Below, in pieces: positions 55,193 to 63,190 of a stretch of DNA of 64,000 nucleotides. A program made the position numbers and the translations under genes. This DNA is from Candidatus Parcubacteria bacterium. Lineage in GTDB: Bacteria; Patescibacteriota; Minisyncoccia; Phycocordibacterales; UBA2100. The notes below the pieces were generated by a model. The model made no database searches and had not been told where the DNA came from. It saw only the letters and a program-made list of their open reading frames with translations. Within the stretch, counting starts at the first letter, position 1; each line of letters begins with the position of its first letter. The stretch spans positions 2,228 to 66,227 of the forward strand of contig QZJK01000007.1 in the NCBI GenBank assembly GCA_003599295.1, read 5' to 3'.

Positions 55193-56554
55193 ATGACTAC
55201 GACAACACTCAGCAACCGTGAACTTTGGCAAAATGCGCTTGTTCAGATAGAGCTAAGCACCTCGGAAACGAGCTTCCGGACGTGGTTCAGGAATACGGAC
55301 ATCGCATCGCGAAGCGGCGGGACAGTGCAGGTCGCTGTTCCGTCGAAAATCGTGAAAGAATGGCTGATGGAGAAGCACGGAAAGCTTATCTTAAAGACAT
55401 TGCGCTCTCTCGACAGCACGGTTCGGACCGTTGAATATGTCGTGCACCGCTCTCCTCCGAAAGAAGAGCGGAAGCCGGGTCGCGCACTCTCTTCTCCGCA
55501 ATCCGCCATCGACCTTTCGGCCCTGTACATCGATAAGCGCGATAATTTGAATCCTCGCTACACATTCGAAACATTCGTCGTCGGGCCGTTCAACCAGCTC
55601 GCACACGCCGCAGCAAAGGCGGTCATCGAGCGACCGGGATTGGCCTACAACCCGCTTTTCATCTACGGCGCAACGGGACATGGCAAAACACATCTCATCC
55701 AGGCAGTGGGGAACTACTTTAAGAAAACACACGCCAATAAAAAAGTGTTATACGTCACCTCCGAGCGTTTCGCGGTTGATTACATGAACGCGGTACGCGC
55801 CGGGCGTGCGAACAGTTTCAAAGATCAGTATAGAAGCCATGACGTTCTTATCATGGATGACGTGCAGTTCATCGCGAATACGGAAAAAACCCAAGAAGAG
55901 CTCTTCCACCTTTTCAATACTCTCCACGACAATAACAAGCAAATTGTTTTTTCTTCGGACAAGCATCCTGCGCTTTTGCCCGGGCTTGAAGAGCGACTCA
56001 AAGGGCGTTTTTCCGCCGGCATGATAGCGGAAATACCTGAGCCGGATGTCGAGTCGCGCATCGCCATCATCAAAGCGAAGCTCGAGAGCCATGGGTTCTC
56101 CATCCCTGAAGACGTCATTCTCTTCATCGCGGAGAATGTCCGCGGGAACATCCGCGAACTTGAGGGAATACTTAATATGATCGTCTGTAAATCCCAGTTA
56201 AAGGGGCGAGGGGTGTCCCTCGCGGATGTGCGGGTCCTCATTAAACACAATGTGCGCCCCGCCAGAGGCGTTTCTGTCGACGAGGTCGTGCGTAGGATCG
56301 CTCAATATTATGAGGTCGCGGAGAAAAGTATTTATGAAAAGACCCGCAAGAAGGAGGTGGTAAAGCCGCGGCAGATAATCATGTACATTCTCCGAGAAGA
56401 ATTCAGTGTTTCATACCCATCAATAGGCGAGAAGTTGGGCGGAAGAGACCATACGACAGTCATCCATTCCTGCGAGAAGATAAAGGAGGAAATAAAATCG
56501 AATACCGCGCTTGAGCAAGAGCTTGATCATATCCGCGCGCTTATACACGCATAG
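55193..56554 (+). CDS. dnaA: Chromosomal replication initiator DnaA
   Basis: LNPRYTF..FV.G..N, NPLFIYG.TG.GKTHL, DDVQF, N.RELEG, GGRDHTTV. Confidence 0.98.
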   Translation: MTTTTLSNRELWQNALVQIELSTSETSFRTWFRNTDIASRSGGTVQVAVPSKIVKEWLMEKHGKLILKTLRSLDSTVRTVEYVVHRSPPKEERKPGRALSSPQSAIDLSALYIDKRDNLNPRYTFETFVVGPFNQLAHAAAKAVIERPGLAYNPLFIYGATGHGKTHLIQAVGNYFKKTHANKKVLYVTSERFAVDYMNAVRAGRANSFKDQYRSHDVLIMDDVQFIANTEKTQEELFHLFNTLHDNNKQIVFSSDKHPALLPGLEERLKGRFSAGMIAEIPEPDVESRIAIIKAKLESHGFSIPEDVILFIAENVRGNIRELEGILNMIVCKSQLKGRGVSLADVRVLIKHNVRPARGVSVDEVVRRIAQYYEVAEKSIYEKTRKKEVVKPRQIIMYILREEFSVSYPSIGEKLGGRDHTTVIHSCEKIKEEIKSNTALEQELDHIRALIHA

Positions 56555-56776
56555 TGTGTGAAGAACGCGTGAATAACGAAAGGAAAAATAGTAATTACTG
56601 TGCATAAAAAATAGGAATTTCAATTTGTTCACAAACAATCCACACTAACCAGACACTTCTCAACAAAACAAAACACTCATTTACCCCAGTCTTTCATTTA
56701 AAAATTACACTTACCAACATTCTCCACACCTATAGTAGTAATAGTATGTATTAAATATATAAACATCTAACAAGGT
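56555..56776. other. Replication origin oriC
   Basis: AT-rich dnaA-dnaN spacer with at least seven DnaA-like boxes (56568, 56599, 56625, 56636, 56657, 56711, 56720), followed by ATA-GTA-GTA-ATA-GTA trios and an AT tract. Confidence 0.85.
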
Positions 56777-57871
56777 ATGAACATCTCAACAGTGAAAGAA
56801 AAAATACTTCAGGCGACACTGATCGCTGAGCGGGTAACCGGGAAAAAAGAATCTCTCCCGATTCTTTCCTGTGTCCTTCTTGATGTTTCGAAAGAGTTGA
56901 CCATTCGGGCAACTAATTTGGAGGCGGGTATTGAGATCCGGATACCTTGTGATGTTGTTGAGAAAGGCGTGATCGCTGTCCCGACGAATGTTCTTTCACA
57001 AACACTACGTTCCATTGGGGGTGAAAAAGTGAGCCTTAAAACAGATGAGGGTAATTTGGTTATAGAGTCAAAAGGAACGAGGACCCTTATTAAATCCATA
57101 CCCCACGATGAGTTTCCCGCGCTCCCAGGAGGCGCTGAGGGCTCAGGAATATCAATATCTCGGATGAACCTCATCGAAGGGATACAAGCTGTCTCGTACG
57201 CAGCGTCCCCGTCGATGATACGACCGGAATTAGGCAGTGTGTACGTTTCCATGCACCGTAACGGTTTGACGTGCGTTGCAACAGACTCCTTCAGGCTTGC
57301 CGAAAAAACAATCAGGGGAGAGAAGGGGAGCACACAGGATATCCTTGTACCTCTTAAGCACGCGCTCGAGGTGGTGCACATTTTGGAGCGCACCGAAGTG
57401 GACGACATAAAACTATCGGCAGACGAGTCGCAGCTGACGGTCTCCGCAGATGGGGTAAGGTACGTATCTCGCGTCATTGACGGCACATTCCCGAATTACA
57501 CAGAAATTCTTCCGAAGAAATACAGCGCCGAGGCAACTGTTCTTAAAAGTGATTTTTCTGAAATGTTAAAGAAGGCCCGCGTGTTCTCCGGGAATGAACA
57601 GAATATAGGGCTCCACCTGTATCCGAAGAAAAAGGTGTTCACGGCAACCGCACAGAGCGCTGATGTCGGAGAAATGTCCGACTCCATCGACGCCGCAACC
57701 TCAGGCGAGGACACCGACATAAACTTTCATATCGGATACCTCGCGGATTGTTTGCCTTCGATCGCGTCCGACTCAATCACACTTTGTTTTTCCGGCGCGG
57801 GCAAACCACTTGTCATTAAAGGAGTTTCAGACCCGACATTCACCTATCTCGTGATGCCGTTGAACAGATGA
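56777..57871 (+). CDS. dnaN: DNA polymerase III beta sliding clamp
   Basis: LPIL, ATNLE, FP.LP, RPEL, VATDSFRLA, G.FPNY, YLVMPL. Confidence 0.97.
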   Translation: MNISTVKEKILQATLIAERVTGKKESLPILSCVLLDVSKELTIRATNLEAGIEIRIPCDVVEKGVIAVPTNVLSQTLRSIGGEKVSLKTDEGNLVIESKGTRTLIKSIPHDEFPALPGGAEGSGISISRMNLIEGIQAVSYAASPSMIRPELGSVYVSMHRNGLTCVATDSFRLAEKTIRGEKGSTQDILVPLKHALEVVHILERTEVDDIKLSADESQLTVSADGVRYVSRVIDGTFPNYTEILPKKYSAEATVLKSDFSEMLKKARVFSGNEQNIGLHLYPKKKVFTATAQSADVGEMSDSIDAATSGEDTDINFHIGYLADCLPSIASDSITLCFSGAGKPLVIKGVSDPTFTYLVMPLNR

Positions 57872-60827: not shown

Positions 60828-61358
60828 CTACGCCGCATTCGTGTATACATGCTCGACATCGTCGTGGGTGTCTATTTCTTGGAGGACCTTCATCAATACT
60901 TCGTTATCGGCCTCAGATAGGGGAACGGTTGTTTTCGGCGCGTAGCCTTCTGCGGACTTCTCGAATGCCCACAAAGCACTTCCGGGTGCCGCAAGCGCAA
61001 GACCGTTCTTCGTCAGCAAGTGTTTGATCTCTTGCGCGGTACGGTTCCTACTGTCAGTAAGCGCTTCAATGACTATCGCAGCACCACCGGGCCCGTATGT
61101 TTCGTACGTTACCGATTCGAGCGCGCCGGTATCAGCCGATGTTCCGCGTGCGACCGCGCGCTCAATATTATCTTTCGGCATGTTTTCCTTTTTAGCCGTC
61201 TCGATGATCGCACGGAGGGCGGGGGAGTTAACGTCGCCACCCGCTTTTTTCGATTCGACGGTGATGCGCTTCGCAAGCTTGCCCCATACGTTGCTTTTTG
61301 CCGCGTCATTCGCACCCTTTTGCCGCTTTATTTGAGACCATTTATTGTGTCCGCCCAT
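60828..61358 (-). CDS. yebC: YebC/PmpR family protein (short form)
   Basis: M.GHNKWS.IKR.K, NMPKDNIERA, YE.YGPGG, TD..NRT, D..DDV..VY.N. Confidence 0.93.
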   Translation of the reverse strand: MGGHNKWSQIKRQKGANDAAKSNVWGKLAKRITVESKKAGGDVNSPALRAIIETAKKENMPKDNIERAVARGTSADTGALESVTYETYGPGGAAIVIEALTDSRNRTAQEIKHLLTKNGLALAAPGSALWAFEKSAEGYAPKTTVPLSEADNEVLMKVLQEIDTHDDVEHVYTNAA

Positions 61359-61379: not shown

Positions 61380-61421
61380 CTATTCACAATGCTATCCACG
61401 CGCTATCCACGATTTTCGACA
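61380..61421. promoter_or_regulatory. Phased DnaA-box-like array
   Basis: CTATTCACA (61380), CTATCCACG (61392), CTATCCACG (61403), TTTTCGACA (61413). Confidence 0.55.
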
Positions 61422-61432
61422 TGTTGCATGCA

Positions 61433-61460
61433 TTTGACGCCAAAATGCATGCTTTACAAT
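61433..61460 (+). promoter_or_regulatory. Sigma70-type promoter of the candidate ncRNA
   Basis: TTGACG (61434) and TACAAT (61455), 15-16 nt spacer. Confidence 0.55.
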
Positions 61461-61466
61461 CACAAG

Positions 61467-61694
61467 TCTGATGCGCTTTACCGTGCGTCAGCGGGTTCCA
61501 GGGATGTTCCGCAAGGGACATCCCAAGGTTCCCAGCTCCTAGGGTTTCTCGTGCGCAAGCGCGAGACACTGCAGGAGCCGTCGGACGGAGCAGTGGAGAG
61601 CAAGGGGATGTCGGGCGCAAGTTTGACACCTCCGGCTTTCGAGGGAAGATCGTATCAACCCAAGAAAAGCCCGCCACGAGACCAGGTCGTCCGA
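61467..61694 (+). ncRNA. Unassigned highly structured ncRNA candidate
   Basis: Three GCAA-capped hairpins, several G-U pairs favouring the + strand, long-range stems and a crossing 7-bp pairing. Confidence 0.65.
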
Positions 61695-61770
61695 GAACAC
61701 AATCGCCTCCGCGCAAGCGGAGGCGATTGTGTTCTACACGCACGAAGCCTCGGTGTTTGCCGAGGCTTCG
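61694..61770. terminator. Two hairpins between the ncRNA candidate and convergent ruvB
   Basis: 19-bp perfect stem AGAACACAATCGCCTCCGC-GCAA-GCGGAGGCGATTGTGTTCT; CGAAGCCTCGG-TGTTTG-CCGAGGCTTCG. Confidence 0.7.
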
Positions 61771-61854
61771 GAACGCTTTACCGTGCTTTTGCTAGATCAG
61801 CCACACAATTGTATACACGGTCGGAGCGACGAAAGCTTCTTATCCCCATATTCT

Positions 61855-62868
61855 CTAGAGAAGCGGTTCTTGTGCGGAGCGAGGCGGAGGGATCCCCACA
61901 TGCTCGTATCCCTTTTTTGTCACCGCGCGCCCGCGTGGGGTTCGCTCCAAAAGACCAAGCTGCATAAGGTATGGTTCGTGCACTTCTTCGATAGTGGCTT
62001 CTTCTTCCGAGAGCGACGCCGCAACGGTTTTCAATCCGACAGGACCACCCCCAAATTTCTCGATAATAATGGTCAGGATATCGCGGTCGGTCTGATTTAA
62101 GCCGCCCTCGTCGATCTCCAGGAGCGCGAGCGCCTTCTTTACGGTTTTCATCGCGAGCGGTTCCTTATTCACTTCGGCAAAATCGCGGGCGCGTTTCAAG
62201 AGGTAGTTCGCGGTGCGCGGCGTAGCGCGACTCCTCCGCGCGACCTCCGCGAGTGATTCGCCGTCAACACCTATACCTAAGATACTCGCCGAGCGTTTCA
62301 GGATTTCCGCTATCTCACCCTCGTTGTAATAGTTGAGGCGGAACGTGCCGCCGGAGAAACGCGAGCGCAGTGGCGCGGAGAGCAAAGAAATGCGCGTGGT
62401 CGCCGCGATGAGCGTGAACGGGGGAAGCTCCAATTGCACCGTGCGCGCGGCGGGGCCTTTCCCGATGACGATATCGAGGACCCCCGACTCCATCGCCGGA
62501 TAGAGCACTTCTTCAATAGTCCTGTTCAAACGATGGATCTCATCGATGAAGAGCACGTCTCCCGGGGAAAGATTAGTCAATATGGACGCGAGATCGCCGA
62601 CACGCTCTATCGCAGGTCCCGAAGTCGCGCGTAGCGACGCGCCTATCTCTTTCGCCATTAAATGCGCGAGTGTTGTCTTGCCCAATCCGGGCGGTCCGTA
62701 GAGCAGCACGTGCTCCGGTTGGTGATTCCTGCCTTTTGCGGCGGTGAGAAGGATGCGGAGATTCTCTTTAATGGTCGGTTGCCCGACATATTCTTCCCAT
62801 AGGCCGGGGCGGAGCGCTTGGTCAAGCGTCCGGGAGCCTTTTTCTTCCAAGTTCGGTTGTTTCCCCAT
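61855..62868 (-). CDS. ruvB: Holliday junction branch migration ATPase RuvB
   Basis: LRP...EY.GQ, GPPGLGKTTLA, FIDEIHRL, EEVLYPAME, GGPVGL, EPYL, RTPRGR. Confidence 0.97.
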   Translation of the reverse strand: MGKQPNLEEKGSRTLDQALRPGLWEEYVGQPTIKENLRILLTAAKGRNHQPEHVLLYGPPGLGKTTLAHLMAKEIGASLRATSGPAIERVGDLASILTNLSPGDVLFIDEIHRLNRTIEEVLYPAMESGVLDIVIGKGPAARTVQLELPPFTLIAATTRISLLSAPLRSRFSGGTFRLNYYNEGEIAEILKRSASILGIGVDGESLAEVARRSRATPRTANYLLKRARDFAEVNKEPLAMKTVKKALALLEIDEGGLNQTDRDILTIIIEKFGGGPVGLKTVAASLSEEEATIEEVHEPYLMQLGLLERTPRGRAVTKKGYEHVGIPPPRSAQEPLL

Positions 62869-62914: not shown

Positions 62915-62942
62915 TTGACATTTAATTATTATATGATATACT
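62915..62942 (+). promoter_or_regulatory. Near-consensus sigma70 promoter
   Basis: TTGACA-16 nt-TATACT, with TG extended -10. Confidence 0.55.
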
Positions 62943-62989
62943 CTTTGCCGGTTGGACGTTCTCCAGCTTTTTTATTTTACCGTACCTTC

Positions 62990-63131
62990 GAGACACTCAG
63001 TTTCGGGCGATGGTGGCTTCTTCCGAGGACGGTGGCGGTTTGCCGCTCGCTTGCGAACGGCTCGCGGCCCCTATCCTCAGGCTCTTGCTGCAACTTTCTC
63101 CATGAAAGCATCGCCCGAAAGTGCGTGTCTC
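62990..63131. ncRNA. Rod-shaped RNA candidate with central bubble (6S-like)
   Basis: GAGACAC/GTGTCTC, TTTCGGGCGATG/CATCGCCCGAAA, bubble, GAGGA/TCCTC, apical GCCG..CGC/GCG..CGGC. Confidence 0.5.
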
Positions 63132-63190
63132 CAAACTGAATTCACGATAGCATCGCTTTCAATGCGCACAAGGTGCTTTCGTGGTCTAAA

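Follow-up and report, generated by a model that had tools for sequence, protein, structure and literature searches.

A doubly pseudoknotted RNA of one patescibacterial genus, with a predicted convergent antisense partner and likely DnaA gating

The interval between yebC and ruvB in a 64,000-nucleotide stretch of a Candidatus Parcubacteria genome (the window, whose numbering is used throughout) almost certainly encodes a noncoding RNA, RNA A, and the sequence around it predicts a short convergent antisense RNA, RNA B, and DnaA sites at both promoters. The locus appears to be a par-like sense/antisense pair with a new noncoding fold and likely DnaA gating. We assign a probability of roughly 45% to the reading that it is a two-RNA cassette, consisting of RNA A and the predicted RNA B, that acts as a DnaA-gated sense/antisense switch reporting replication status. 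This reading rests on sequence: the fold of RNA A as judged by covariation, a repeat of part of RNA A, an opposing −10 element, a two-way terminator, boxes at fixed spacings, and the joint presence or loss of the parts. The features are collected in Table 1.

The region 61433–61770 folds far better than chance (z −11.2 on the + strand); without the terminators, z is −7.1 on the + strand and −2.8 on the − strand, in agreement with the RNA strand proposed in an earlier sequence-only reading of this DNA. In the consensus structure 86.1% of cells pair, compared with 72.8% in shuffles and 31–43% in slid controls, and an unguided list of conserved helices made from the first alignment recovered P4, PKb, P3a, P5, P2b, P1, P3, P2a, and PKa. 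A tree-aware helix test with 131 sequences gave E=0 for P2b, P3, P4, P5, and PKb; the nearly invariant P1 gave little signal. It should be noted that this helix-level test, which uses its own null model and 15 simulated alignments, is the only covariation test that reached significance. Single-pair covariation in 76 sequences, an underpowered test, placed no pseudoknot pair at E<0.05 (best PKb pair, E 2.4), and the independent-pair sign tests, also underpowered, have a median above 0.05, with changes towards pairing far commoner (e.g. 4.2 versus 0.1, among those listed). The helices follow one another in the order P1, P2, P3, P4, with the internal loop of P3 giving one strand to each knot and the internal loop of P4 taking both; this compact four-helix knot has conserved junction bases, the internal loops of RNA A are purine-rich, and the loop of P2b is a GNRA loop in 130 of 131 homologues.

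The sequence-only reading had proposed a stand-alone, pseudoknotted RNA. Covariation identifies two true pseudoknots, PKa and PKb, but not the one that was drawn: the pairing of TCGGACG with CGTCCGA (61581/61688) is real, and compensatory changes across homologues include it, but it forms the ordinary closing stem P4. The two long-range stems proposed, GCGGGTT/AGCCCGC (61491/61668) and TTCCC/GGGAA (61529/61643), can pair in the window but do so in 48.0% of cells among 56 homologues, compared with 46.8% after shuffling, and the first has a tree-aware p of 0.96; the proposed GAGAGC/GCTTTC helix is displaced by the covarying P5. The hairpins and GCAA loops that it named are all present, as are its promoter and the GCAA-capped ending hairpin, which was described as having 19 bp and is an 18–19-bp stem. 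RNA A is an independent + strand noncoding RNA, as that reading held, but it is partnered rather than alone, with a predicted convergent antisense RNA and DnaA boxes in the unit; the two pseudoknots, the box array at 61380–61411, and the P1-loop repeat at 61774–86 with its opposing promoter were absent from the first reading.

Table 1. Positions of the cassette features in the window, and of neighbouring DnaA domain-IV proteins at homologous loci
Feature	Position	Strand	Remarks
Array of three DnaA-box-like 9-mers	61380..61411 (61380-88, 61392-400, 61403-411)	+	11-12-bp period; predicted sites
Promoter of RNA A	61434..61460	+	-35 TTGACG (61434-39), 15-nt spacer, -10 TACAAT (61455-60); start site predicted
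RNA A	61467..61734	+	228-nt structured core (61467-61694) plus terminator, about 270 nt; from homologues and fold
P1 hairpin	61468..61491	+	nearly invariant; loop UUUACC; two conserved G-U pairs; 99.8% of cells paired; predicted RNA B binding site
P2 arm	61493..61533	+	with GNRA-capped P2b (61501-61524); P2b E=0
P3	61535..61578	+	stem 61535-40/61573-78, inner hairpin P3a (61549-64); both internal-loop strands in pseudoknots
Pseudoknot PKa	61543-48 with 61678-83	+	86% of cells paired, double changes at all 5 pairs; p 2.9e-5; E 0.47, borderline after all helices are counted
Pseudoknot PKb	61567-72 with 61590-95	+	88% paired, double changes at all 6 pairs; E=0, p<4e-6
P4 closing stem	61581-87/61688-94 (span 61581..61694)	+	covariation; encloses P5 to tip
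P5	61595-601/61669-75	+	covarying; inside P4
Clade-specific hairpin	61604-32	+	inside P4
P6	61634-39/61666-71	+	inside P4
Conserved tip GAGAU-NNN-AUC-RA	61646-58	+	inside P4
Two-way intrinsic terminator hairpin	61695..61734	.	18-19-bp stem in window
Predicted antisense RNA B, ~60 nt	61743..61801	-	seed 61774-61786, exact complement of RNA A 61474-61486
Second hairpin	61743..61770	-	predicted terminator stem of RNA B in source clade
Promoter B -10 TACAAT	61808..61813	-	no -35 consensus
DnaA-type box TTATCCCCA	61840..61848	+	26 nt beyond -10 of promoter B
DnaA domain-IV proteins	L202:1064-1789, L208:1024-1749, L189:1075-1767, L211:390-827; also in genomes G017, G102, G060, G146		yebC-ruvB interval

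The family comprises 132 distinct full-length sequences, mostly of 200–240 nt; 7 short forms occur among the homologues, and indels of any size are found in the alignment. The P5-to-tip part is absent in 7 of 131 homologues. Natural deletion forms occur at L207:2046-2185, L017, L199, and L256:2029-2178; that of L207 lacks the knotted core and keeps the promoter, P1, tip, and repeat, and in the others nothing is left inside P4 but the knot strands, the forms of L017 and L199 being single-copy variants without the part from P5 to the tip. No single domain of RNA A is an obvious effector, because single-copy variants lack either that part or the knotted core, and the only universal parts of the cassette are P1 and the repeat. 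A pairing of the freed 5′ strand of P1 with the conserved tip was rejected (the variable position is paired in 82 of 124, compared with 88 expected), as was a peptide starting at the ATG of P1, a codon that is absent in 12 of 132 sequences and opens frames of <10 to >150 codons.

RNA A is uncatalogued, since no Rfam family fits it and no paper describing it was found. At the gathering score its region has no Rfam match, relaxing the threshold to E 10 brings up nothing more than terminator-like fragments, and no published description appeared in the literature on raiA, Patescibacteria, Kaiserbacteria, CPR, DnaA box, or par; ruvB, yebC, and DnaA do not occur in the main text of two 2026 bioRxiv surveys of noncoding RNAs, whose supplements could list the family. 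The earlier view that it is not RNase P RNA, tmRNA, or SRP RNA is borne out. The genome has its own RNase P RNA (RF00010) at C1:7469-7827 (119 bits) and its own tmRNA at C1:63904-64291, and RNA A has neither tRNA-like ends nor a tag frame; there is no RF00169 match and no Ffh/FtsY partner in the 97.9% complete source genome. 6S RNA was also rejected, there being no RF00013 match and RNA A being branched and knotted rather than a rod with a central bubble and paired ends, and a dispersed REP/MITE repeat does not agree with a single copy in the source genome and one or two copies in each of 70 genomes. The closest orphan RNA considered is the raiA motif (RF03072), which, as portrayed in the available parts of two accounts, is of similar size and has two pseudoknots and optional peripheral stems (PMC12968392, PMC10861870). 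However, raiA is described in the available part of one of these as pairing its own 5′ and 3′ ends as P1 and using a hairpin loop with a linker for its knots (PMC12968392), whereas the 5′ end of RNA A is a free hairpin and its knots join two internal loops. Identity with raiA was rejected, both because of this topology and because the locus gives no RF03072 match even when E values as high as 10 are allowed.

A covariance model, R1, built from the alignment of 56 homologues found RNA A in 70 of 116 genomes of the genus (~60%; 44 of 82 high-quality ones); BLAST had found relatives in 20 of 60 genomes of the same genus, and the P1 sequence pattern is present in 61 of 116. Outside the genus, R1 gave one weak match in 35 family genomes, two in 149 order genomes, and none in 150 class genomes; the two of these matches that were inspected (L214 and L404) fall within protein-coding genes and are attributed to chance, and other weak matches are L215 and one of 22 nt in G146. 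RNA A is thus restricted to one genus, apart from chance matches elsewhere, and is not the CPR-wide class first suggested. Among metagenome contigs there were 113 matches to P1, and all 80 of the loci scanned with R1 were positive. In one public sequencing run (X1), whose status as RNA is a guess, a 185-nt contig from a relative lies inside 61501–61685 with 12 differences and no long cover on the flanks; of the 9 differences that were listed, 7 leave a pair intact or improve it and 2 disrupt one, a reading that is not counted as evidence. In a control region of 20 kb around tmRNA, no long close piece was present among the matches listed, and run X1 is thus not evidence of expression. A pattern made from the 3′ motifs of the window, which is not conserved in the homologues, was discarded after matching at least 119 unrelated stretches, an Rfam scan of 20 of which yielded nothing but unrelated riboswitches; the Clostridia loci that it fetched (L041, L045, L075, and L080) are ZMP/ZTP riboswitches unconnected to RNA A.

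The promoter of RNA A is a family feature: in 123 of 128 homologues its −10 hexamer precedes the RNA by 6–7 nt, and the spacer is 15 nt, the family norm, in 42 of the 50 that have a recognisable −35; a consensus promoter scan did not list the copy in the window (spacer only 15 nt). This spacer is shorter than the usual 17 nt and may reflect the sigma factor of the lineage or DnaA dependence. The terminator that follows RNA A has a stem of at least 10 pairs in 125 of 129 homologues, with a T-rich tail on the + strand in 121 and on the − strand in 125. Beyond it, 13 nt of the loop and arm of P1 are repeated identically at 61774–86. Of the 128 homologues whose downstream sequence is long enough, 117 have such a repeat, which abuts the shared terminator in 89 of 116 and lies away from it in 27. 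Among the 11 homologues without it, 9 share a genome or contig with a repeat-bearing copy, 1 was missed by the search rule, and only 1 (L190) is a true exception. A TA..T hexamer stands 8–13 nt from the repeat in 101 of 115 homologues and reads TACAAT, TACTAT, or TACACT in 99 of 103. RNA B is predicted because of this repeat, the opposing −10 element, and the two-way terminator; it would be ~50–60 nt long across homologues, and its 5′ end would be the P1 repeat, complementary to the loop and 3′ arm of P1.

The two copies have changed in a way that points to base pairing. P1 and the repeat agree at 918 of 936 positions of the 8-nt core (4 of the 8 by the search rule), and the differences comprise 9 that are compatible with G-U pairing, none of the opposite kind, and 9 others. 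Both copies changed jointly, through G-U intermediates to a new Watson-Crick pair, in two lineages (L027 then L181; L011 and L201b then L189, L201a, L202, L207, and L208), or about two independent events. The predicted duplex of RNA B with P1 has a mean energy of −19.4 kcal/mol, compared with −12.1 kcal/mol for the P1 hairpin, and is the stronger in 103 of 103 cases, partly because RNA B replaces two conserved G-U pairs. RNA A therefore probably pairs with RNA B.

The three boxes of the array upstream of promoter A each have 2 mismatches to TTATCCACA, which we take to be the DnaA-box consensus and used in the scans. In homologues the boxes lie at about −110, −99, −87, −76, and −64, with the best at −87 and weaker ones nearer the promoter, and paired boxes are present upstream of promoter A in 117 of 128 homologues, compared with 3 of 2768 background windows. 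The box beyond promoter B, often TTATCCCCA and then 1 mismatch from the consensus, is present with at most 1 mismatch in 109 of 115 homologues, at a spacing of 25–27 nt in 99 of 115; exact matches to TTATCC[AC]CA number only 12 in the whole source genome. The boxes at both promoters are likely to be bound by DnaA, the cassette having the conserved boxes at fixed spacing that mark DnaA-regulated promoters, and we hold with some confidence that DnaA controls it. Additional matches to a divergent, stand-alone DnaA domain IV without the ATPase domain were found 9 times in 8 genomes, all in or beside the yebC-ruvB interval; 7 of the 8 genomes carry RNA A, with the match within 0.5 kb of it in 6 and at 1.7 kb in one, and G146 has no RNA A. 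The link of these neighbours to RNA A is suggestive only, because the interval is a hotspot, which may partly explain them.

The source genome, from a groundwater-type bacterium, is 716 kb and 97.9% complete; the window lies on its contig C3, and no 16S marker was found in the assembly. RNA A is flanked by yebC (60828–61358, minus) and ruvB (61855–62868, minus) and lies 5 kb downstream of dnaA, a distance of 5.0–12.4 kb in 49 of 49 cases; this nearness is a by-product of the yebC-ruvB location and adds no independent support. Across the genus the interval is hypervariable, from a 30-bp gap to several kilobases (L216–L242, L011–L211), with DoxX, DUF2585, Usg, Fic, YafQ, RelA/SpoT, and Panacea genes among its cargo, and is a hotspot that collects many unrelated genes; a Pfam scan of 98 of the 137 frames adjoining RNA A found no constant partner gene. 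On the ruvB tree of 36 positive and 27 negative genomes, presence of the cassette requires about 9 changes, compared with 20.7 for shuffled labels, a pattern that fits inheritance with repeated loss, gain and loss not being separable by the tree alone. Because of these changes, and because RNA A was not found by R1 in 46 of the 116 genomes (38 of 82 high-quality ones), the unit is dispensable. At the 27 ruvB loci of model-negative genomes, 20 of which were rescanned with R1, RNA A is absent and neither a repeat with its promoter nor a three-box array was found; some of these loci have yebC-ruvB gaps of 30 bp. The cassette is therefore gained or lost whole.

Three observations concern the rest of the window and genome. 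In the dnaA-dnaN gap (56554–56777), TAG repeats and an AT-rich tract come after a DnaA-type box, and the gap is likely to be the replication origin. Neither SRP RNA nor an SRP54-family protein was found in the whole source genome (G000). Between ruvB and a pilus-type ATPase gene lies a second conserved, uncatalogued noncoding RNA (62917–63135, + strand; core about 62990–63135), with its own predicted sigma-70-type promoter, a fold z of −6.5, BLAST matches in 54 of 116 genus genomes, some of which have no RNA A, and no Rfam match; it forms a rod whose ends are paired and whose centre is open, and 12 of 41 pairs show double changes. We take this shape to recall 6S RNA, for which the source genome has no match.

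In the favoured DnaA-gated switch, RNA B would be transcribed from a promoter that has no −35 element and depends on DnaA at about −46. Its free 5′ end would pair with the loop of P1 and then invade the 3′ arm, exchanging the conserved G-U pairs of P1 for Watson-Crick pairs, and its binding would either free the 5′ end of RNA A for decay or shut off RNA A activity. The graded box array would tune promoter A to the level of DnaA, and the knotted P3/P4 core may be a nuclease-resistant scaffold, with the conserved tip as a protein-binding site. RNA B would disarm RNA A while replication can start, and RNA A would be free to act once DnaA activity falls, so that free RNA A would be a marker of low DnaA activity. 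As a guess, free RNA A might slow growth or re-initiation, as a checkpoint similar to that of sda in Bacillus subtilis but made of RNA; such an output is put forward tentatively. P1 itself may carry the activity of RNA A, because there are natural variants without the tip domain or without the knot. No target of RNA A was found in the source genome, and for RNA B or P1 there was nothing convincing, the best duplexes with the dnaA, dnaN, yebC, and ruvB mRNAs being unremarkable. An RNA-only replication checkpoint of a new kind, in which DnaA-driven RNA B would unzip and disarm a doubly knotted effector whose promoter reads the DnaA level through the graded array and, in some lineages, through domain-IV competitors, is a bolder version that we consider rather unlikely.

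The CcnA RNA of Caulobacter is reportedly a noncoding RNA in cell-cycle control that acts on the mRNAs of master regulators; unlike RNA A, it has no matching fold or repeat-guided partner. The sda gene provides a nearer parallel in control, being, in the available part of one account, DnaA-activated with a short-lived checkpoint product, and its DnaA boxes, like those predicted here, lie at the promoter and turn replication status into a short-lived signal (PMC4447404). However, sda encodes a protein and also lacks a matching fold or repeat-guided partner.

The roles of the two RNAs could be exchanged, with RNA B an active small RNA that has mRNA targets elsewhere, RNA A a stable sponge for it, and DnaA setting their ratio. 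The universality of P1 and the repeat alone would suit such an arrangement, as would the two paralogous RNA A copies that share one common RNA B in several genomes, but outside the cassette the source genome has 6 copies of the 9-mer where 4.5 are expected, which is no enrichment, and no convincing target site at a start codon was found. RNA B was never seen without RNA A at the 27 model-negative loci, and a covarying double pseudoknot is unnecessary for a sponge. We regard this exchange of roles as improbable.

It is more doubtful still that the cassette is a selfish addiction module made only of RNA, in which RNA A would inhibit growth, RNA B would be an unstable antidote, and the DnaA sites would tie the antidote to growth with no benefit to the host. 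RNA A is almost never found in a genome without RNA B, tandem paralogues occur, and YafQ, Fic, RelA/SpoT, and Panacea domains are among the neighbours. CreTA and SdsR/RyeA are RNA-RNA toxin-antitoxin pairs. In the latter, according to the available part of the source, two complementary noncoding RNAs are encoded on opposite strands, as are RNA A and the predicted RNA B, and one neutralises the other (PMC8167048); the cassette differs in pairing through a short repeat rather than a long overlap and in its predicted DnaA sites. The layout is most like that of par of the Enterococcus plasmid pAD1, a type I toxin-antitoxin system of RNA I and RNA II, which, as far as the available part of its description goes, shares convergent promoters (predicted here), a common two-way terminator, a direct repeat read in opposite directions, and RNAs of ~230 and ~40–60 nt (PMC7472228). 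Unlike par, the cassette has no conserved peptide or short hydrophobic toxin frame among the frames checked from the ATG of P1, and it has a covarying double pseudoknot, DnaA boxes, and a repeat away from the terminator in 27 of 116 homologues. Its single repeat is near-invariant, whereas par, in the same part of that source, has two variable repeats, poorly conserved between systems (PMC7472228), and near-invariance of the seed argues against addiction. The fixed chromosomal place in nearly all genomes, with clustering on the ruvB tree, and the absence of RNA A from viral contigs, phages, and plasmids also argue against it.

Similarly doubtful is the interpretation of the repeat as a DNA operator through which a single protein would control two promoters, RNA A being an independent, DnaA-controlled RNP scaffold without A-B pairing. 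In favour of an operator, the near-invariance of the 9-mer is what a protein-binding site would show, and each copy sits immediately downstream of a predicted start; the conservation of the tip and the purine-rich internal loops also hint at a bound protein. Against it, the motif in RNA A is built into a hairpin with 99.8% pairing, mismatches between the copies are one-sided, as G-U pairing predicts, and the spacing of the RNA B copy from its −10 element varies from 7 to 20 nt.

A domesticated replicon or helper origin without an initiator protein, with RNA A as a ColE1-like primer RNA, RNA B as a copy-number antisense RNA, and the boxes loading DnaA, is very unlikely. Replicons of this kind are made up of a structured RNA, an antisense RNA directed at its 5′ end, and DnaA boxes, and ColE1 RNA II/RNA I similarly combines a structured RNA with antisense control at the 5′ end, as set out in the available part of the source (PMC5043065); RNA A is also oriented away from dnaA. 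However, ColE1 RNA II, in that part of the source, runs through the origin, whereas a strong terminator ends RNA A in 125 of 129 homologues, the match of RNA B is a 10–13-nt seed and not ~110 nt, the cassette has no AT-rich unwinding tract, whereas the dnaA-dnaN gap has one, and RNA A is chromosomal only, without a plasmid or phage copy.

HDV-like ribozymes have a nested double pseudoknot, a catalytic C, and a first pair that is G-C or G-U. That RNA A is a self-cleaving double-pseudoknot ribozyme switched by RNA B is scarcely credible: the compact four-helix knot with its conserved junction bases, and a first P3 pair that is G-C or G-U and so resembles that of the HDV-like ribozymes, are offset by the lack of any Rfam ribozyme match at E up to 10, a strand order unlike the topology of those folds, the lack of an invariant C before the last pseudoknot strand, and single-copy natural variants without the inner domain or, as in L207 with its retained promoter, P1, tip, and repeat, without the knotted core, which also speak against the ribozyme first suggested.

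Regulatory RNAs of CPR bacteria are barely described, and how replication is coupled to a host-dependent life is an open question in these organisms. RNA A represents a new fold in which two internal loops are locked by two pseudoknots, in a size that suits cryo-EM; natural deletion variants already dissect this fold, and its predicted partner is precise, a 10–13-nt seed with natural compensatory alleles. Generality is limited by the narrow range, one genus, and by frequent loss. If DnaA gates both RNAs, the replication initiator would be tied to an RNA-RNA switch, for which no precedent was found in the literature searched, and if the RNA-only checkpoint is true, an ultra-small, host-dependent bacterium could shift between growth and dormancy without a protein regulator.
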